Shown here: piece by piece, positions 3,368 through 57,889 of the stretch
Layout: each line of letters begins with the position of its first letter
Numbering within the stretch: position 1 is the stretch's first letter
DNA from: Escherichia phage mogra
Sequence record: MN850579.1
DNA length: 64,000 bases
Reading direction: 5' to 3' (one strand)
The notes under the pieces: generated by a model
Database searches by the model: none
Seen by the model: the letters and a program-made list of their open reading frames with translations, nothing else
What the model was told of the DNA's origin: nothing
Made by a program: the position numbers and the translations under genes

Positions 3368-3858
3368 TGATTAACAAAACATATTGGTCTAATATAGACG
3401 ATGGCAACGAAGGTATTTCGTATTATTCGGTAGATTGGACAGGATGTCCATCCTACTTAGTGAAACATATTTGCCAAGAATTTAAAATCTACCAGCCAGC
3501 AGGTATTATTGTGAACAGATACATTAATGGATATCAACCTATCGATGAAGTAATACGAACAACTCAAGCTGAGCTTGAAAAGTTTTTCAATAAGTGCCAA
3601 TGGATAACAGGATGGATTATATTTGTACCGTCTATATGGTTTTTTAGTACTAAAGTAAGTGCCTTTGCTGTACTAGATATTATCGCTATCTTATTAGCAT
3701 CTACTATCGTAAGTATTATTGGTGGTATTATTGGTGGAGGTATTGTAGGCATCATTATTAATCTTATTAAAAGTAGTTTACAAGAACATAAAGACAAGAT
3801 AAAAGCCAAGAATAATGAAGTTGAACGTTTTATTACCGAATGCAGGAATTTGAGATGA
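3367..3858 (+). CDS. membrane protein with glycine-zipper helix
   Basis: ATG 3367 overlaps upstream stop (TAATG); hydrophobic segment ...SIIGGIIGGGIVGIIINLI... Confidence 0.5.
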   Translation: MINKTYWSNIDDGNEGISYYSVDWTGCPSYLVKHICQEFKIYQPAGIIVNRYINGYQPIDEVIRTTQAELEKFFNKCQWITGWIIFVPSIWFFSTKVSAFAVLDIIAILLASTIVSIIGGIIGGGIVGIIINLIKSSLQEHKDKIKAKNNEVERFITECRNLR

Positions 3859-4091
3859 GTATAGCAATTTACATTAAATCAGAATCATGTGATAGTTATC
3901 TGTACACATACGATAAAGATGTGTCAGAAGAAAAAATCAAAGACGATCTTAATATGGACCTTGATATGTTCTGTCCTATTGCAGATTACAAACTTGCGGT
4001 CTCTAATAGTGAAAGTCCATCTAAAGAAACGCGCATCGAAGAATTTATGTCCGAATTAATGGCCAAATCATGGGACCGAGATGATGAGTAA
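3855..4091 (+). CDS. hypothetical acidic protein
   Basis: ATG 3855 overlaps upstream stop (ATGA); 78 aa. Confidence 0.45.
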   Translation: MSIAIYIKSESCDSYLYTYDKDVSEEKIKDDLNMDLDMFCPIADYKLAVSNSESPSKETRIEEFMSELMAKSWDRDDE

Positions 4092-4539
4092 GAAAAATAA
4101 AGTGAAAGAACTATCAGCCGGTATTATTTTCCTTACCGAAGATAAAGAATTATTCATGGGGCGTGTAACTGGTTCTTGTCCTAAAGGTTCTTTAGCTCAT
4201 AGGTGGGATATTCCTAAAGGCCGTGTCGAACCTGGCGAATCTTCTATTGAAGCCGCTATTCGTGAATGCGAAGAAGAAACTGGGTTTACACAATATGACC
4301 CTGCCTTCCTGAAAGACCTAGGTGAACATCGTTACTCAGACAATAAGAATATTCATCTGTTCCTATATGCCATCCCTGTAGAGCACGAGCAATTCAGAAA
4401 CAGTGTTTGTAATTCCTATCATACATTCCCAGACGGACGACAGATTCCTGAATTTGATGCATTCGCTTTAATTAAACCTTCTCAATGGGAATATGTGATG
4501 GGCAAATCATTATATAAGGTGCTCACTACCCTCCTATAA
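4081..4539 (+). CDS. nudE: Nudix hydrolase
   Basis: Nudix box GRVEPGESSIEAAIRECEEETGF; sits immediately upstream of lysozyme as T4 nudE (e.1) does. Confidence 0.85.
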   Translation: MMSKKNKVKELSAGIIFLTEDKELFMGRVTGSCPKGSLAHRWDIPKGRVEPGESSIEAAIRECEEETGFTQYDPAFLKDLGEHRYSDNKNIHLFLYAIPVEHEQFRNSVCNSYHTFPDGRQIPEFDAFALIKPSQWEYVMGKSLYKVLTTLL

Positions 4540-8392: not shown

Positions 8393-8616
8393 TGGCTAAA
8401 TTGATTATAGAAGGGTCTGAAGATGTTTTAAAATGTTTTGCCGCCTGGTTTAGTTGCTCAGGCGAGCAATCATTCATTGAAGCATTTAGAACGGGTGATA
8501 TTACTGGAAACTATCCGACAACTGATATCACTGTACGTGGATATGGTATTAATGAGCCTATCCAATTGGTCGAATATGACCTTGCCACCGATGAGGAAAT
8601 TCCTTATGTCGATTGA
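8392..8616 (+). CDS. hypothetical protein
   Basis: TAATG overlap with upstream stop; 74 aa. Confidence 0.5.
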   Translation: MAKLIIEGSEDVLKCFAAWFSCSGEQSFIEAFRTGDITGNYPTTDITVRGYGINEPIQLVEYDLATDEEIPYVD

Positions 8617-8872
8617 AGACATCAAAGGCTACAAGCCACATACCGACGATAAAATCAGTAAAGTGAACGCTATTAAAGATGCAGAAGTCCGTCTTGGATT
8701 GATGTTTGATGCTCTGATTGAAGAAGCATATATCTTTAAAGAAAATGAAACAGAGCAACAAACCAAAGAAGATATGGATGCAGTGCAGGCTCTTAAGTAT
8801 GCTAAGCAACATCTAAAAGAAGCCAGCATGTGGGCATGTCGTGCAGTATTTCGACCTGAGGAAAAATACTAA
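8606..8872 (+). CDS. hypothetical protein
   Basis: ATG 8606 after GAGGAAA; track start 8438 is internal to the upstream gene; 88 aa. Confidence 0.5.
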
Positions 8873-9171
8873 TGGCTCAAATCCTATCAGGCTTTGGAAC
8901 TCATTATGAAGCATCTAGACGCATAACTGAAAGCAATCCTTTTGGCCTTGTTCCGAAGCACAAGAAAATTCAAAGCCTTGATGACTTTGAGAACCGCCTA
9001 TGGGCCCTCTTTAATGAGTACAAGGCATATCTGAAAGAAGACGCTGACTATTGTCTTGAAGAAGATGAGATTGCGTATTACGAACAACGCCTTGAACAGC
9101 TCAAGAACTTCCGTCAGGTTCGTGACGAAGTATCTAAAGCAGTTAAAAAGTTAATTCCTTTCAAAGAGTAG
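8872..9171 (+). CDS. hypothetical protein
   Basis: TAATG-coupled start; 99 aa. Confidence 0.55.
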
Positions 9172-9221
9172 TTTACTTCTCCTCTAGTTGTGTTACTATA
9201 GACTTGTCAACTAGAGGAGAA
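9171..9221 (+). promoter_or_regulatory. early-type promoter embedded in a 14-bp inverted repeat that can sequester the regB SD
   Basis: GTTTAC 9171-9176; arm TTCTCCTCTAGTTG 9177-9190; TACTAT 9194-9199; perfect complement CAACTAGAGGAGAA 9208-9221 includes the SD. Confidence 0.6.
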
Positions 9222-9227
9222 ATCAAA

Positions 9228-9686
9228 ATGACTATCAATTCGGAAGTTTTTATCCGCCGTAATAAACTCCGTCGAATCTTTGAAACGGAGTTCCGCAAAA
9301 TAAATGCCGGTATAAAAGATGCTGCAAAGTCTCTTGGACTACCAGGCTTTCATATCAAGTATTCTCAACATCTCTTAGATCGTGCCATCCAGAGAGAAAT
9401 AGATGAGAATTACGTTTTTGAATTATTTCATAAAGTAAAAAATCATGTTAAAGAAGTTGCAGAATTTTTATCAATGCCGGCACGTCCGGATGTTGATGAA
9501 GATTTTGTCGAAGGTGTCGAATATCGCCCAGGCCGTTTAGAAATAACTGATGGAAATCTTTGGTTAGGACTTACAGTTTGTCGCGAAAATCCAGCATTCA
9601 AAATGAAGACTCTTCAATGCAGAATGGCTATTATTAACAGTAAACGACTACCAGGAAAAGCTTCTAAAGCAGTGATTAAAATCTAG
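9228..9686 (+). CDS. regB: endoribonuclease RegB
   Basis: MTINSEVFIRRNKLRR...HIKYSQHLLDRAIQREIDE...LQCRMAIINSKRLPGKASKAVIK matches recalled T4 RegB; ATG 9228 after GAGGAG. Confidence 0.9.
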   Translation: MTINSEVFIRRNKLRRIFETEFRKINAGIKDAAKSLGLPGFHIKYSQHLLDRAIQREIDENYVFELFHKVKNHVKEVAEFLSMPARPDVDEDFVEGVEYRPGRLEITDGNLWLGLTVCRENPAFKMKTLQCRMAIINSKRLPGKASKAVIKI

Positions 9687-9694
9687 AGGTAAAC

Positions 9695-10237
9695 ATGAGA
9701 AAAGCACTACTCGCTGGTCTATTTGCTCTTTCGTTATCAGCACATAGCTCCGAGCATACTTTTAGTAATGTCCAACTCGATAACTTGAATTATGCTTATC
9801 AGTTTGGGGAACAGTTTTCTAAGGATGGAAAATTTAAAACGCATGAAAATATGCATAAGAAAGGACTTGGATACATAATGGCCGCAATACTATGGCAAGA
9901 ATCATCTGCCGGTATTAATCTTAAAGATAAGAAAGGTCACCATGCGTATGGAATGTTCCAAAACTATCTACCAACAATGAGGGCAAGAATTAACCAGCTT
10001 GGGTATAATATGACTGATGCCCAAATTAAGAAAATGCTATCTAAGCGGTCTAATTCAACCAGATGGGCTTATATCGAATTTTCTTATTGGTTAAATATAC
10101 ATAACGGGGATATAAGAAAAGCTATATCCTCATATAATGCTGGATGGAAGACAAGTGCTGGAAGTAAATATGCTTCTGAAGTCCTAGAAAAGGCTAATTA
10201 CCTTAAATCAAATAAACTACTGGAAATAAAAGAATGA
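9695..10237 (+). CDS. secreted lytic-transglycosylase-like protein
   Basis: Signal peptide MRKALLAGLFALSLSAHS; ESSAG and YNAGW motifs resembling SLT-domain catalytic regions. Confidence 0.5.
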   Translation: MRKALLAGLFALSLSAHSSEHTFSNVQLDNLNYAYQFGEQFSKDGKFKTHENMHKKGLGYIMAAILWQESSAGINLKDKKGHHAYGMFQNYLPTMRARINQLGYNMTDAQIKKMLSKRSNSTRWAYIEFSYWLNIHNGDIRKAISSYNAGWKTSAGSKYASEVLEKANYLKSNKLLEIKE

Positions 10238-10581
10238 CCAAAATGTTGGCTTTAATAGTTGGCTTGGTTTCATTTAACGCTCTTGCTAATACTACATATA
10301 CTGATGTAACGGAGTATACAAACAGAACGGCGTCTGATTATTGTGGTAAAAGTCAAGAGTGTAAAGTAGATTTTTCACAAAAATTGTTATACGCTTATAA
10401 AGACGGAGAAAAAGATGGGGCGTCTAGTAGGTTCAAGGCGTCTACCTTAATTAAAAGATACTATAAAAAATGGCAAATATTAGAATGCTCGGTGGCGGAA
10501 CCTAAAGATAAGGCAGCATGCAATTCTATGGTGGACCGTCTAGTTGACTCTTATAATAGAGGACTTGCAGCAAGTGATTAA
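10234..10581 (+). CDS. secreted small protein
   Basis: Signal peptide MTKMLALIVGLVSFNALA; 115 aa. Confidence 0.5.
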   Translation: MTKMLALIVGLVSFNALANTTYTDVTEYTNRTASDYCGKSQECKVDFSQKLLYAYKDGEKDGASSRFKASTLIKRYYKKWQILECSVAEPKDKAACNSMVDRLVDSYNRGLAASD

Positions 10582-11041
10582 AAACTATATCAAGGGCGAT
10601 ATTGTCGCCCTGTTTTCTAAAGGTAATAATATTGCTCATGGGTGTAATTGTTTTCATACAATGGGCGCTGGTGTGGCAGGGCAATTAGCAAAGGCTTATC
10701 CAAAAATTCTGGAAGCCGATAAACTTCAAACCGAATTCGGAGACAAGTCTAAACTCGGGACTTATTCGGTTTATGAAAAATATTTTAAGACCCATAAAGC
10801 TTATTGCTTTAATCTTTATACACAGTTTGAGCCGGGACCTAATTTTGAGTACTCTGCTTTAATGAATTGTATAATAGAATTAAATAAATTCGGAAAGAAT
10901 AAGATAACAAAGCCTGTAATTTATATGCCAAGAATTGGTGCAGGTATTGGTGGTGGAAACTGGGATGTCATCGAAGAGATTTTAGATACGTATTCCACTA
11001 AACTAGAAATTGTGATTGTTGATTGGGAACCGTTATTATGA
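10544..11041 (+). CDS. macro-domain protein (ADP-ribose binding / hydrolase fold)
   Basis: HGCNCFHTMGAGVAGQLAKA and PRIGAGIGGG resemble the two macro-domain glycine motifs; start uncertain (TTG 10544 or GTG 10574). Confidence 0.6.
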   Translation: MTLIIEDLQQVIKNYIKGDIVALFSKGNNIAHGCNCFHTMGAGVAGQLAKAYPKILEADKLQTEFGDKSKLGTYSVYEKYFKTHKAYCFNLYTQFEPGPNFEYSALMNCIIELNKFGKNKITKPVIYMPRIGAGIGGGNWDVIEEILDTYSTKLEIVIVDWEPLL

Positions 11042-11250
11042 ATATACATTATCCACATCCATATGATCCAAAGAATAAGGCAGTAATTATTCGTCAATGG
11101 GAACGCATTTGTCGTACCAAATGTCCAATTAATAGTCCACATGATGTAGATAAAGACTACATCGGAACATTCGTTGAATATACCTTTATTGATAAGAAAG
11201 GCCGTAAACAACATGTAGAAGAATATTGCTTAAAGGTGACATGGCTATGA
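11038..11250 (+). CDS. hypothetical protein
   Basis: ATG 11038 overlaps upstream stop (ATGA); 70 aa. Confidence 0.5.
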   Translation: MNIHYPHPYDPKNKAVIIRQWERICRTKCPINSPHDVDKDYIGTFVEYTFIDKKGRKQHVEEYCLKVTWL

Positions 11251-11453
11251 GTCAAACAAAAATTCTTACAGGTGCTAAATGCGAAAAATGCGAATGGCCT
11301 GTAGTTTTTGCTTTATGCAATGACGAAATGGCTTGTGATTTTGATTATTGGTGTTACTGTTCGAACAAAGGTTGTAGCAATCATAAAGGTGAAGGGTTTT
11401 ACTCAGGATTTTACCCTTACCCAGATTTCGTTAAAGAAGGTGAACCTAAATGA
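11241..11453 (+). CDS. cysteine-rich small protein
   Basis: CEKCEWP...CNDEMACDFDYWCYCSNKGCSNH cysteine cluster; start 11241 or 11247. Confidence 0.5.
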   Translation: MAMSQTKILTGAKCEKCEWPVVFALCNDEMACDFDYWCYCSNKGCSNHKGEGFYSGFYPYPDFVKEGEPK

Positions 11454-11632
11454 AATTAACTAAAGAAGAGAAAGCTAAACTGTTCGAACTTATCCATGAC
11501 CTATTGGATGAGCAAGCAGCCACCAATGCGTATGATGAATATGCTCCTTTGACGGACGAAGAATATCAAGCATTGTTGGAATCATTTGACAGGAAAGAAC
11601 AAGAACTCATTGACTACGTGAATTCACTATAA
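11450..11632 (+). CDS. hypothetical acidic protein
   Basis: ATGA overlap; 60 aa. Confidence 0.45.
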   Translation: MKLTKEEKAKLFELIHDLLDEQAATNAYDEYAPLTDEEYQALLESFDRKEQELIDYVNSL

Positions 11633-11641
11633 GGGACTCTT

Positions 11642-12223
11642 ATGGCTAGTTTAATTTTTACCTATGCCGCTATGAACGCTGGTAAGTCTGCTTCATTACT
11701 TACTGCCGCACATAACTATAAAGAACGTGGCATGGGTGTATTAGTTCTTAAACCGGCTATTGATACTCGCGATTCAAAAGGTGAAATAGTCTCTCGTATT
11801 GGTATTCGTCAGGACGCCAATATAATTACAAAAGACATGGATATCTTTGAATTCTATAAATGGGCTGCAGCACAAAAGGATATTCACTGCGTATTTGTTG
11901 ACGAAGCTCAGTTCTTAACTACTGAAAAGGTGTATCAACTTAGTCGTATTGTTGACGTATACAATGTGCCGGTAATGGCATATGGACTACGAACAGATTT
12001 TAAAGGTAATCTATTTGAAGGTTCTCAAGCATTAATGGCTATTGCCGATAAGCTTGTTGAACTTAAAGGGGTCTGTCATTGCGGTAAAAAGGCCACAATG
12101 GTAGCTAGAGTCACGGAAGACGGACTTCCAATTACAGATGGCAGTCAAATTGAAATTGGTGATACTGATAGATATGTGTCATTATGCCGGAAGCATTGGA
12201 ACGATTTGACAGGGTTGTTATAA
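11642..12223 (+). CDS. tk: thymidine kinase
   Basis: P-loop AMNAGKSASLL; C-terminal zinc motif CHCGKKA...C; matches recalled T4 Tk N-terminus MASLIFTYAAMNAGKSASLL. Confidence 0.93.
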   Translation: MASLIFTYAAMNAGKSASLLTAAHNYKERGMGVLVLKPAIDTRDSKGEIVSRIGIRQDANIITKDMDIFEFYKWAAAQKDIHCVFVDEAQFLTTEKVYQLSRIVDVYNVPVMAYGLRTDFKGNLFEGSQALMAIADKLVELKGVCHCGKKATMVARVTEDGLPITDGSQIEIGDTDRYVSLCRKHWNDLTGLL

Positions 12224-12250
12224 ATACTAATATCTAACCAAGAGGTATAT

Positions 12251-12463
12251 ATGCAGCAATTAAACGAAAGACAACTTCGTAATCTTACTGTAACCCAATT
12301 GGATGAAATCCGAAGAGAATTAGGACATTCTATTTCTCATTTAAACGAGGATATCCGTCAAACTGGTTCTAAAGCTGATTATACACGCAAGCGCAAGCTG
12401 GAAAAATACCTCGCAGATGTTAAGGCCGTCCAAAGGCGAAAAATAAATACTGGCCAAAATTAA
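12251..12463 (+). CDS. hypothetical protein
   Basis: GAGG RBS; 70 aa basic protein. Confidence 0.5.
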
Positions 12464-12475
12464 CAGGAGGCCTAT

Positions 12476-12778
12476 ATGGCCTTAAGAGCGATAGCTGTCA
12501 TGGCGATGCTGGGGTTTTTTGCAGCAACAACTCCTATCGTTGGTACTGCATATATCGACCCATATTTTGATAACTTTATGGAATCAGGGATTAAAAACGT
12601 ATATACTTTGTTTGAAATTCAAAATGTCGAGAATTCTGAAAAATTCTATAAGTATATGGCAAAGCATTACAAAAATAGTCCCTGTGATGATGCATTTGAA
12701 TGTCATGAACAAGGCATAAAAACTGCCAGACAATTTGCCGAGTTCATGAAAATAAAATTAGAGCCTACATCTATCTAA
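12476..12778 (+). CDS. rI: lysis-inhibition regulator RI (antiholin)
   Basis: Signal-anchor MALRAIAVMAMLGFFAA then ...DPYFDNFMESGI...KNSPCDDAFECHEQG resembling recalled T4 RI; directly downstream of tk. Confidence 0.8.
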   Translation: MALRAIAVMAMLGFFAATTPIVGTAYIDPYFDNFMESGIKNVYTLFEIQNVENSEKFYKYMAKHYKNSPCDDAFECHEQGIKTARQFAEFMKIKLEPTSI

Positions 12779-56641: not shown

Positions 56642-57223
56642 ATGACATGTCAATCTGAACTTCAAGAACGTGAATACCTAACAAATCTGATTGATAGCAA
56701 ATTCACCCACCAAGAACAAAACATTCTCTGGGCTTGCACCGATTCTAAGGAAGACCCGGATTTCCATTATGAATTAGACCATCTTGTTCGTAAGCATATG
56801 ACTTCTACAGTACCAGTAGAACTCTACCGTGGTGTAACTCCAGAAGAAGTAGAACGTCTTTCCCTTCTTTCTGTTGGATGCCATTGGTCTCCTGGACGAG
56901 TAACATCGTTCACAGCTGATTTCAGTACAGCTCGTCAATTCTCTGGGAGATGGGAATATCAGACGTACACTATTCTTAGTCTCAGGAATGCTCCGTTCAT
57001 TTTTGATTACTACCAAAACATGGTTAACATTGTACTCGCCGGAAAGAACCCTAAGCATGTTATGGAAGAAACGCGTGTTGACGTCCTAGATATGATTGAA
57101 TCTGAACAAGAGTACATGGTCTCAGGTATCTCTAGATTTGAGATTGTGGAAATTGAAGACTTAGAATATGACCCTTTATCTCGGTTATACAAAATCATTC
57201 ATTTGAAAATGTTGAATTTTTAG
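56642..57223 (+). CDS. Mod-family ADP-ribosyltransferase (modB position)
   Basis: R-S-E ART signature: LYRGV, FTADFSTARQF, ESEQEYMVSG; 193 aa; paralog of next gene. Confidence 0.72.
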   Translation: MTCQSELQEREYLTNLIDSKFTHQEQNILWACTDSKEDPDFHYELDHLVRKHMTSTVPVELYRGVTPEEVERLSLLSVGCHWSPGRVTSFTADFSTARQFSGRWEYQTYTILSLRNAPFIFDYYQNMVNIVLAGKNPKHVMEETRVDVLDMIESEQEYMVSGISRFEIVEIEDLEYDPLSRLYKIIHLKMLNF

Positions 57224-57280
57224 TGTACAAACTCTACCGACGATGATACTATACTTTTATCAACCACAGGAGAAACCTAA

Positions 57281-57889
57281 ATGTTTATGCCGTATAACGA
57301 GTGTGAAATTGAAGAAATGGTTCGACGTGCTCAATGCCCGGATTATCAATATATGCTTCAGTACAAAATCGATGAGCAATTCAGCGACATTGAACAAAGT
57401 GTACTGTGGCAGTGTATGGAAAACAAGCCTGATAGCATCCAACAAGATTTAAGTGCAATTGTTCGTAGAAATTGGTCTTCTTCAGTTCCTGAGACAATGT
57501 ATCGTGGAATCTCTAAGAAAACTATGGCTACACTCGATGATAAAAGCATTGGTAGTATTATTAAATTTGACAGAGTAATGAGCTTTAGTCCGGTGTTTGG
57601 TGTAGCACGTAACTTCGCTTCATATAATTTTTATGGAACATTTAATATGTTCTGCATCAAAGATGCACCATTTGCTTTCAACTTCCGTGAACATATGCTT
57701 AACATGATTCTGGCTGCGCCATCTTGTGAGTTCAATGGAGCTTTCCCTGAAGCGACAAGACGGTCTAATGCTAGACTTATATCTGACGAATGTGAATTTA
57801 TGCTCCCTATAGGGACTACACTGCGTGTAGATTCTATTATTCAAGATGGACGTTATACAATCTGGAATCTGTCTATTGTCAGTTACTGA
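57281..57889 (+). CDS. Mod-family ADP-ribosyltransferase (modA position)
   Basis: R-S-E ART signature: MYRGI, MSFSPVFGVARNF, SDECEFMLP; 202 aa. Confidence 0.72.
   Translation: MFMPYNECEIEEMVRRAQCPDYQYMLQYKIDEQFSDIEQSVLWQCMENKPDSIQQDLSAIVRRNWSSSVPETMYRGISKKTMATLDDKSIGSIIKFDRVMSFSPVFGVARNFASYNFYGTFNMFCIKDAPFAFNFREHMLNMILAAPSCEFNGAFPEATRRSNARLISDECEFMLPIGTTLRVDSIIQDGRYTIWNLSIVSY

Follow-up and report, generated by a model that had tools for sequence, protein, structure and literature searches.

The window analysed here, a stretch of 64,000 nucleotides of Escherichia phage mogra (MN850579.1), comes from a Mosigvirus, that is, an RB69-like T-even phage, and carries between vs and tk.3 a gene that is, by sequence and gene order, the syntenic ortholog of T4 tk.4 (adfM). 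The order vs-tk.4-tk.3-tk.2-tk.1-tk is the same in the window, in the T4 annotation and in the annotation of phage mobillu; in the window, tk.3, tk.2 and tk.1 correspond to DUF7202, Phage_zn_bind and DUF7438, respectively. The product is identical to T4 Tk.4 at 130 of 155 residues (84%; 146/155 positives, 0 gaps) over the full length, and the two proteins share their length, their neighbourhood and the motifs HGCNC, YTQ and PRIGAGI, while differing at position 127 of the phosphate loop, which is Gly in mogra, as in the family consensus, and Lys in T4. The gene is already known and the function of tk.4/adfM has been published; many GenBank records also label adfM homologs "macro domain protein". 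The annotation of the family in T4 and in PHROG 335 is that of a phosphatase, and 'phosphatase; A1pp motif' and 'regulator of RNase III' are found among its legacy labels. The features of the locus are collected in Table 1.

Table 1. Features of the adfM locus of phage mogra (positions in the window; residue numbers count from the GTG start).
Feature	Position	Strand	Basis or remark
adfM (tk.4 ortholog), coding sequence	10574..11041	+	GTG start, 155 aa plus stop; T4 orthology, Pfam Macro, AF2
In-frame 5' extension (TTG start), within the 3' end of vs	10544..10573	+	Probably untranslated; no counterpart in any homolog
GAGGA, likely Shine-Dalgarno (function inferred)	10559..10563	+	Sequence; 10 nt before the GTG; GAGGA also kept in T4
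First signature, H22-G-C-N25-C-F-H-T-M-G-A-G-V-A-G36	10637..10681	+	Asn25 and first Gly-rich loop, predicted to bind ADP-ribose
Asn25, conserved catalytic-site Asn (by alignment)	10646..10648	+	
Y82-T83-Q84 motif	10817..10825	+	Q84 at the catalytic Lys position of DarG/TARG1
Q84 codon	10823..10825	+	
Second signature, P119-R-I-G-A-G-I-G-G-G-N-W130	10928..10963	+	Predicted phosphate-binding Gly-rich loop

In the open-reading-frame listing of the window, the longest frame at this position runs from a TTG codon over 10544..11041 (+ strand; 165 aa), and it was this frame that the preliminary description had taken for the gene; the frame is real, but its start had probably been placed 30 nt too far upstream. 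The true start of adfM is most likely GTG 10574, which is preferred because of the N-termini of the homologs, the alignment with T4 and the spacing of the Shine-Dalgarno sequence. This GTG aligns with the ATG of T4 tk.4 and corresponds to the start annotated in phage mobillu, and the N-terminus that begins there reads MI..YIKGD in every homolog. TTG 10544, which merely opens the longest mechanical frame, is outdone on each of these three grounds. The vs frame ends at 10581, so that the GTG start of mogra overlaps it by 8 nt, as opposed to an ATG with a 4-nt overlap in T4. A terminator-like hairpin lies inside the adfM frame (10593..10611; z-score only -2.2), where the same sequence is present in T4 and ime09 and the pairing is largely forced by the KGDIVAL codons. 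The label 'early region', also given to the gene in the preliminary description, would follow from T4 homology only, and a promoter scan of 8500..12500 is uninformative on timing, with 10 sigma-70-like sites found there, fewer than the 12.7 in shuffled controls.

The claim that the product carries macro-domain motifs, made originally from the two strings AHGCNCFHTMGAGVAGQLAKAYP and YMPRIGAGIGGGNWD, both of which are present in the 10544..11041 frame, is borne out by profile, fold and orthology. The macro-domain HMM search proposed with it places Pfam Macro (PF01661) above its gathering cut-off (28.6 bits vs 22; E=1.5e-6), with 116 of the 118 profile positions (2-117) matched by residues 32-146 of the 165-aa frame, and a sequence search of the PDB gave BT1257 as the best match (1.3e-10) and Poa1p at 1e-8. 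An AF2 model of AdfM (pLDDT 95.4, pTM 0.91) found 141 matches at E<=0.001 in a Foldseek search against the PDB, each of the best 50 being either a macro domain or a designed serine hydrolase with a macro-domain scaffold, all with a probability of 1.00. Among the matches listed, the TM-score was best for Poa1p (0.80), followed by the DarG macrodomains (0.72-0.74; T. aquaticus 5m31/5m3e and M. tuberculosis 5m3i), TARG1 (about 0.7) and SCO6735 (0.69); the nearest solved structures, which are these four and BT1257, all belong to the ALC1/TARG1-like class. The likeness to macro domains goes far beyond chance, and the confident model predicts mogra AdfM to be a macro-fold protein with the three-layer alpha/beta/alpha arrangement. 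Profiles for DarG cover its macro part only: NCBIfam DarG (NF048014) gave 31 bits, its cut-off being 250, and was matched at profile positions 4-146 of 338, and PADLOC DarG at positions 4-145 of 329.

Conservation within the AdfM family was computed over 55 members, in which G23, N25, C26, G33 and A35 of the first signature and P119, I121, G122, G124 and W130 of the second are invariant, and the segments M30-G-A-G33 and G122-A-G-I-G-G-G128, like N25, are invariant or nearly so. The YTQ motif is likewise invariant in the 55 members, and 79 of 80 cellular relatives retain it. Whether aligned by MAFFT or by profile, Q84 falls at the position of DarG K80 and TARG1 K84, where YTQ stands opposite PTK in DarG and in PhiKZ gp104, ITK in TARG1 and IGQ in BT1257. 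By way of BT1257, which has been placed in the same subclass as SCO6735 (PMC9411070), Q84 would be equivalent to SCO6735 Gln85, a residue that is essential for hydrolysis of thymidine-ADP-ribose DNA, with Q85A being dead (PMC9411070). Judged by motif position (HGCN vs His24-Val25-x-Asn27), N25 appears to match SCO6735 Asn27, and it aligns with N23 of PhiKZ AdfM, whose N23A mutant shows reduced removal of dT-ADP-ribose (PMC13309987). The second signature has its counterpart in PRIGCGLAGGKW of BT1257 and in PRIGCGLAGGTW of SCO6735, in which Gly128 of the second Gly-rich loop is required for full activity (PMC9411070).

With SCO6735 and BT1257, AdfM shares the Gln at the DarG-K80/TARG1-K84 position, the conserved Asn and a PRIG.G..GG.W loop, at an identity of only about 23-28%. 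SCO6735 is a stand-alone protein that has been shown to cleave dT-ADP-ribose DNA, to neutralise DarT and to rescue DarT toxicity (PMC9411070). AdfM differs from this subclass in its mobile loop, which in that subclass exceeds the loop of DarG/TARG1 by about five residues and carries Lys residues (PMC9411070), whereas in AdfM the loop after Q84 (FEPGPNFE) is short as in TARG1/DarG, acidic and without Lys; measured against the AdfM family profile, BT1257 has a 6-residue insertion after the Gln, while TARG1 and DarG align free of gaps. A further difference is the invariant Gly23 of AdfM (H22-G23-C24-N25, against H-I-C-N in BT1257) at the position where the authors of the SCO6735 study regard Val/Ile25 as subclass-specific, although the role proposed for that position uses the backbone oxygen, so that the side chain may not matter (PMC9411070). 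Another stand-alone phage macrodomain that counters DarTG2 is PhiKZ gp104, which is also called AdfM and has been shown to remove DarT2 marks in vitro (Cell Rep 2026, PMC13309987). It belongs to another subclass, in which the DarG-type Lys is kept (FPTKDNW). Of all the references compared it stands furthest away (30 bits to the AdfM family profile; 23 residues only aligned by BLASTP), which suggests, as far as sequence comparison goes, that the T-even and PhiKZ AdfM proteins were acquired independently despite their common name. The DarG2 macrodomain has the same fold as AdfM, whose whole macro part is matched by the DarG profiles, and shares with it the presumed substrate and biological logic, the undoing of DarT2, but AdfM has neither the C-terminal DarT-binding domain nor an adjoining darT, has Gln in place of Lys80 and is only about 21-24% identical to DarG. 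The best structural likenesses are to yeast Poa1p, whose H-x-C-N-C motif is as in AdfM, and to human TARG1/OARD1; in these the position of Q84 is occupied by Ser and Lys, respectively, and the Asp125 partner of TARG1 is replaced by Gly in AdfM. The known substrates of the two are a metabolite for Poa1p and Glu/Asp-linked protein ADP-ribose for TARG1.

DarTG systems stop phages by ADP-ribosylation of phage DNA. T4 lacking both adfA and adfN is still resistant to DarTG2, and a further anti-DarTG2 factor had therefore been predicted (PMC11825919). In a HIDEN-SEQ preprint of November 2025, a T4 transposon library grown on DarTG2 hosts showed significant depletion of tk.4 and of no other gene, a clean T4 tk.4 knockout became DarTG2-sensitive, and the gene was named adfM, for anti-DarT factor Macrodomain (bioRxiv 10.1101/2025.11.20.689424). 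This genetic evidence comes from a preprint and from one DarTG2 system in T4, a different phage from mogra, and the authors regard enzymatic removal by Tk.4 as something that 'seems likely' (bioRxiv 10.1101/2025.11.20.689424). The published genetics agree with the suggestion in the preliminary description that a phage macro domain could reverse the ADP-ribosylation of phage DNA by host defences, and by analogy the mogra copy would behave on DarTG2 hosts as the T4 copy does.

Mogra AdfM is, in our view, probably a stand-alone 155-aa macro-domain enzyme, an 'orphan antitoxin' that acts against DarTG2 through SCO6735-like hydrolysis of dT-ADP-ribose. In the proposed mechanism, host DarT2 would ADP-ribosylate thymidines in single-stranded phage DNA and block its replication, upon which the two Gly-rich loops of AdfM would bind the ADP-ribose and the enzyme would hydrolyse the thymidine-ADP-ribose bond, restoring replicable DNA. 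The presence of an invariant Gln84, together with Asn25, instead of a Lys points to a water-mediated, lysine-independent hydrolysis, and the chemistry expected would be like that of SCO6735, unlike that of DarG. This reading is also favoured by the in vitro activity of PhiKZ gp104 on DarT2 marks and by those cellular family members that directly follow a NADAR gene. Several observations count against AdfM as an enzymatic DNA eraser: the catalytic Lys of DarG is missing from the family; so are the longer, Lys-bearing mobile loop and the Val/Ile25 that have been proposed as DNA-substrate features of SCO6735; and its closest structural match, Poa1p, is an ADP-ribose-1''-phosphate phosphatase.

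Protection against DarTG2 need not be enzymatic, since SCO6735 Q85A, DarG K80A and TARG1 K84A all inhibit DarT on DNA in vitro, SCO6735 most strongly (PMC9411070). AdfM could act in the same manner, by stoichiometric binding of DarT2 or of ADP-ribosylated DNA, as has been proposed for AdfA and AdfB, and the literature reports no catalytic mutant of T4 Tk.4. We nevertheless consider this unlikely, as AdfM, at 155 aa, is without the C-terminal DarT-binding domain of DarG (whose profiles have 329-338 positions) and its invariant residues are precisely those of the ADP-ribose site and the catalytic centre, namely N25, Q84 and the two Gly-rich loops. Such a pattern, which holds across phages of many hosts and in the cellular relatives, is expected of an enzyme and not of a binder to one fast-evolving toxin. 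It is more improbable still that AdfM is mainly an enzyme of small molecules, whether an ADP-ribose-1''-phosphate phosphatase or an O-acetyl-ADP-ribose deacetylase. Poa1p is both the best Foldseek match and a strong sequence match, has the H-x-C-N-C motif in common with AdfM (as HSCNC) and aligns its H23 and S30 with H22 and T29 of AdfM in a HMMER alignment (the deposited Poa1p mutants probe H23, S30 and F152), and T4 and PHROG 335 carry the phosphatase label. That label, however, comes from domain naming and not from an assay, the clearing of a metabolite would not explain why T4 tk.4 becomes essential specifically on DarTG2 hosts, and Poa1p has Ser at the invariant Gln position, where the DNA-active SCO6735/BT1257 subclass has Gln.

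The preliminary description had also raised the idea that a phage macro domain could regulate its own ARTs, in which case AdfM would counteract Alt, ModA and ModB, undoing the ADP-ribosylation or RNAylation of host proteins. The two Mod-type ADP-ribosyltransferases that it had located at 56642..57889 are indeed encoded in the same genome, both ORFs matching PHROG 832 ('RNA polymerase ADP-ribosylase') with values near 1e-38 and being annotated ModA/ModB in near-identical phages, and SCO6735 and TARG1 act on protein substrates too (PMC9411070). The regulatory idea itself is without support and we regard it as barely credible: homologs of AdfM were found in 2,840 phage records, against 1,080 records for Mod-type transferases; many of the carriers are of other types, infecting Pseudomonas, Vibrio or Acinetobacter or having genomes of 86-150 kb; and adfM lies 45 kb from the mod genes. 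Alt, ModA and ModB of T4 make arginine-linked ADP-ribose, a linkage that is removed by ARH-type enzymes and that macro domains of the TARG1/DarG class are not known to cleave. CmdTAC, a defence system that ADP-ribosylates RNA, still blocks T4, and Tk.4 is therefore no general eraser (PMC11618068).

As to the origin of the T-even protein, AdfM is not classed as a phage copy of DarG, in view of its missing C-terminal domain, its score far short of the DarG cut-off, the exchange of Lys for Gln and flanking genes, vs and tk.3, that include no darT. The cellular relatives number 349, and 80 of their loci were surveyed together with flanks of at most 4 kb at either side. A tblastn search of these 80 loci with the DarT2 of P. 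aeruginosa 505 gave nothing better than E=0.8, a result of limited sensitivity that comes from a single-sequence query and covers DarT2-type toxins only. Clustering of the neighbouring ORFs returned for the most part housekeeping genes with no relation to one another. A single recurrent neighbour was informative, a NADAR gene, which directly precedes the AdfM family member in 6 of the 80 loci. NADAR proteins are a family of erasers of guanine-ADP-ribose on DNA. We propose, tentatively, that AdfM may belong to a separate, very widespread orphan lineage (HGCNC...YTQ...PxIGAGIxGGxW), present in many bacteria and in some 5.6% of the phage genomes sequenced, and may not be a domesticated DarG. The lineage would hydrolyse dT-ADP-ribose with Gln and water in the manner of SCO6735, though with a short TARG1-like loop, and the anti-DarT2 macrodomains of phages would have arisen at least twice. 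If this is true, the NADAR and macro genes that lie head-to-tail in Ruegeria and Bacteroidales could make up a toxin-free two-gene cassette repairing T- and G-linked ADP-ribosylation of DNA, and the anti-DarT2 macrodomains of phages would be of two types, a Gln type in T-even phages and a Lys type in PhiKZ.

The value of the present analysis is mainly corrective, in that the 'phosphatase' of the T-even annotation becomes AdfM, an anti-DarT2 macrodomain, and its start moves to the GTG. What is new is the invariant Gln of the YTQ motif in the T-even family, where DarG, TARG1 and PhiKZ AdfM carry a catalytic Lys, so that the predicted catalytic residue for mutagenesis is Gln84 instead of a Lys; this difference and the bacterial NADAR-macro pairs offer modest new leads on the mechanism and origin of the eraser. 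In the T-even phages, AdfM would take its place in a layered set of counter-measures comprising AdfA, the NADAR enzyme AdfN, directed against DarT1, and the AdfM macrodomain, directed against DarT2. An RB69-like phage that carries adfM is predicted to resist DarTG2 naturally, which bears on the prediction of host range and on phage therapy.

On gene order and protein alignment, T4 tk.4/adfM has its Mosigvirus ortholog in the macro-domain gene of phage mogra, hereafter adfM. Escherichia phages vB_Eco_F27, AV111 and mobillu match the region 9600..12300 at 99% identity. Mobillu is assigned to Mosigvirus, which is the RB69 group within the T-even phages, and the local order (regB-like, vs.1, vs, macro gene, three small genes, thymidine kinase) agrees exactly with regB-vs.1-vs-tk.4-tk.3-tk.2-tk.1-tk in T4. 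The protein is 84% identical and 94% similar to T4 Tk.4 over 155/155 residues, without gaps. The T4 record labels tk.4 'phosphatase; contains A1pp phosphatase motif', and 'macro domain protein' is already the label in many other records. The preliminary description had placed the frame at 10544..11041 (+); its frame and end were confirmed, and both quoted glycine-rich peptides (AHGCNCFHTMGAGVAGQLAKA and MPRIGAGIGGGNW) are found in the translation, while its start has been moved to the GTG at 10574. The TTG at 10544, which falls within the preceding gene vs, is simply the earliest start codon that the open frame offers, whereas the homolog N-termini, all MI..YIKGD, and the T4 alignment, in which this GTG pairs with the ATG of tk.4, point to 10574. 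This is also the annotated start in mobillu, with a GAGGA 10 nt 5' of it, and it gives a protein of 155 aa, from which residues are numbered here.

Several features of the locus were observed alongside. The vs/adfM overlap (GTGATTAA) is 8 nt with a GTG start, in contrast to the usual 4-nt ATGA overlap of T4, and a 1-nt indel just 5' of it alters the vs C-terminal residues relative to T4. A terminator-like hairpin lies at the 5' end of the adfM CDS, within its first 40 nt; T4 and phage ime09 have an identical stem, and a terminator is annotated at this place in some GenBank records, but its fold z-score is only -2.2, its pairing is mostly dictated by the KGDIVAL codons, and no covariation is available. 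Tequatroviruses carry two strongly different tk.4 alleles, a T4 type about 84% and an ime09 type about 59% identical to the mogra protein. The first 38 nt of tk.4 are identical between ime09 (locus L083, 1501-1980) and T4 (L002, 3423-3890), and this identical 5' end with a diverged remainder looks like a recombination junction inside the anti-defence gene. Directly 3' of adfM lie the three small genes, and the vs.1 ortholog is labelled 'SLT transglycosylase' in one related record.

Coordinates of the features discussed (positions in the window, except for the NADAR-macro pairs, given per bacterial locus)
Feature	Position	Strand	Remarks
vs.1 ortholog	9695..10237	+	signal-like N-terminus; SLT lytic-transglycosylase 19.4 bits, below threshold of 21.3
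adfM (tk.4 ortholog)	10574..11041	+	macro domain
vs/adfM overlap	10574..10581		8 nt
Terminator-like hairpin	10593..10611	+	8 bp stem, 3-nt loop, then GTTTTCT
tk.3, tk.2, tk.1 orthologs	11023..11632	+	DUF7202, phage zinc-binding domain, DUF7438; between adfM and tk
ModA/ModB-type tandem pair	56642..57223, 57281..57889	+	PHROG 832, about 1e-38
NADAR-macro pairs	about 3450-4450	same strand	Ruegeria L031, L041, L056, L070; Bacteroidales MAGs L042, L076

The assignment to the macro-domain fold was borne out by every line of comparison, from Pfam, PHROG and DarG models to PDB sequence matches, AlphaFold2 and Foldseek. The Pfam Macro (PF01661) score was 28.6 bits, above the gathering threshold of 22, with the profile nearly fully covered, PHROG 335 matched at 2.5e-66, and the NCBIfam and PADLOC models of DarG, the antitoxin of the DarTG2 defence system, align to the macro part of the protein. 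Sequence matches in the PDB comprised BT1257 (1.3e-10), Poa1p (1e-8), SCO6735, TARG1/OARD1 and DarG macrodomains. The AlphaFold2 model, built from an alignment of 55 homologs, reached a mean pLDDT of 95.4 and a pTM of 0.91; among the matches listed by Foldseek against the PDB, Poa1p was best (TM 0.80), T. aquaticus and M. tuberculosis DarG reached 0.72-0.74 and SCO6735 0.69, and these, TARG1 and BT1257 all had probability 1.00.

A role for this gene has been described in T4, where phage lacking adfA and adfN remained fully resistant to DarTG2 and a further factor was predicted (Johannesman et al., PMC11825919). That gap is filled by the identification of tk.4: in the HIDEN-SEQ preprint of November 2025, a T4 transposon library was grown on a DarTG2-expressing host, tk.4 was its sole significant hit, and a clean tk.4 knockout is DarTG2-sensitive. 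The authors named the gene adfM (anti-DarT factor Macrodomain), pointed out that its product resembles M. tuberculosis DarG in structure, and wrote that the enzymatic stripping of ADP-ribose from DNA 'seems likely' (bioRxiv 10.1101/2025.11.20.689424). The anti-DarTG2 macrodomain gene is hence already known. Mogra adfM, its Mosigvirus ortholog, is with good probability likewise an anti-DarTG2 gene, with enzymatic activity predicted, and the preliminary interpretation is supported in that its second idea, that the protein undoes ADP-ribosylation placed on phage DNA by the host, was right, matching the T4 genetics. In the published chain of events, DarT2 ADP-ribosylates thymidine in single-stranded DNA, the DNA becomes unreplicable, and a macrodomain glycohydrolase undoes the mark. 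T-even DNA carries cytosine hypermodification; this would not shield it from a thymidine-directed transferase, so that an eraser would be a sensible solution.

Across 55 family members, with identity down to 38%, the invariant residues (G23, N25, C26, G33, A35, D49, L61, G62, N80, Y82, T83, Q84, P119, I121, G122, G124 and W130) fall into three motifs, HGCNC..MGAG, NxYTQ and PxIGAGIxGGxW. Reference sequences were placed by MAFFT addition and by alignment to the family HMM, which agree; the M. tuberculosis DarG reference is a 100% match to 5m3i, and the T. aquaticus sequence came from the 5m31 alignment. Q84 lies opposite the catalytic lysine K80 of DarG (FPTK), K84 of TARG1 (LITK) and the lysine of PhiKZ gp104 (FPTKDNW), and BT1257 has Gln there (MIGQ). 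In SCO6735, Gln likewise replaces the catalytic lysine, and the Q85A mutant is inactive; the enzyme releases ADP-ribose from thymidine in DNA and relieves DarT toxicity in cells, and a water held by the residue 25 backbone has been proposed as the proton donor, with Asn27 fixing the Gln rotamer (PMC9411070). As N25 and Q84 correspond to these residues, AdfM would be expected to use an SCO6735-like, lysine-independent chemistry. Judged by alignment, it is not simply an SCO6735: its post-Gln loop is as long as in TARG1 and DarG (BT1257 has a six-residue insertion) and is acidic (FEPGPNFE), where that of SCO6735 bears Lys, and position 23 is an invariant Gly as opposed to Val in SCO6735 and Ile in BT1257.

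The same comparisons bear on other readings. The legacy annotation, by which AdfM would be an ADP-ribose-1''-phosphate phosphatase or OAADPr deacetylase, draws on Poa1p being the top structural match among those listed and on HxCNC being common to both, but it leaves the DarTG2-specific requirement unexplained and Poa1p has Ser where the family has Gln, making it quite improbable. Slightly less improbable, though still unlikely, is that AdfM inhibits DarT2 non-catalytically, as catalytically dead SCO6735, DarG and TARG1 each do in vitro (PMC9411070); against it, the conserved residues cluster at the ADP-ribose site even among phages infecting unrelated hosts, and the protein has no DarT-binding domain.

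The first idea of the preliminary description, that AdfM controls the phage's own ADP-ribosyltransferases, appears the most remote. Both Mod-type transferases are indeed encoded in the same genome, as a ModA/ModB-type pair recognized by PHROG with no Pfam match, but the macro gene has homologs by tblastn in 2,840/50,697 phage records, Mod homologs occur in only 1,080, and T4 is still blocked by CmdTAC, an RNA ADP-ribosyltransferase system. Macro domains of this class are not known to act on the arginine linkage made by Alt/Mod-type transferases. Counterparts in many Tequatroviruses share only about 33% identity with the second Mod copy, making the Mod genes far more diverged than adfM.

The phages that carry a member of this macro family infect, among others, Klebsiella, Salmonella, Pseudomonas, Vibrio, Acinetobacter and Aeromonas, and homologs also occur in non-T4-like genomes of 86-150 kb. 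When one genome per bacterial species was scanned with sequence patterns, 349 cellular relatives emerged, and the best 80 share 36-45% identity with the mogra protein; YTQ, which lay outside the search patterns and is thus an independent check, is kept in 79/80. At these 80 loci, tblastn with P. aeruginosa DarT2, a search of limited sensitivity, detected no homolog of the toxin within 4 kb, and the neighbours are mainly unrelated housekeeping genes. Six loci from two distant lineages, four in Ruegeria genomes and two in Bacteroidales MAGs, are an exception: there a NADAR gene (Pfam NADAR 2e-37; weak match to the phage gp30.3 family) lies directly 5' of the macro gene, the Ruegeria and Bacteroidales NADARs being only 27% identical. 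NADAR enzymes, T4 AdfN among them, remove guanine-linked DNA ADP-ribosylation, and the pairing lends guilt-by-association support to DNA de-ADP-ribosylation by the macro family; the pair may form a toxin-free cassette erasing G- and T-linked marks.

Another protein called AdfM is PhiKZ gp104, named independently by Morgan et al., which strips DarT2-made ADP-ribose from a TNTC oligonucleotide in vitro, less so as N23A (PMC13309987). In the portions searched, this paper and the T4 preprint do not name each other's AdfM. The family profile gives gp104 only 30 bits and BT1257 66 bits, and two subclasses can be distinguished, a DarG-like Lys type (PhiKZ gp104) and an SCO6735/BT1257-like Gln type (T4 Tk.4, YTQ). 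This split, with the context of the cellular relatives, suggests that the T-even family and gp104 are independent acquisitions sharing a name by chance. The Gln-type active site would imply a mechanism unlike that of DarG or PhiKZ AdfM, and this, together with the family's proposed non-DarG ancestry and the bacterial NADAR-macro pairs, is the modest novelty that remains beyond the known gene.
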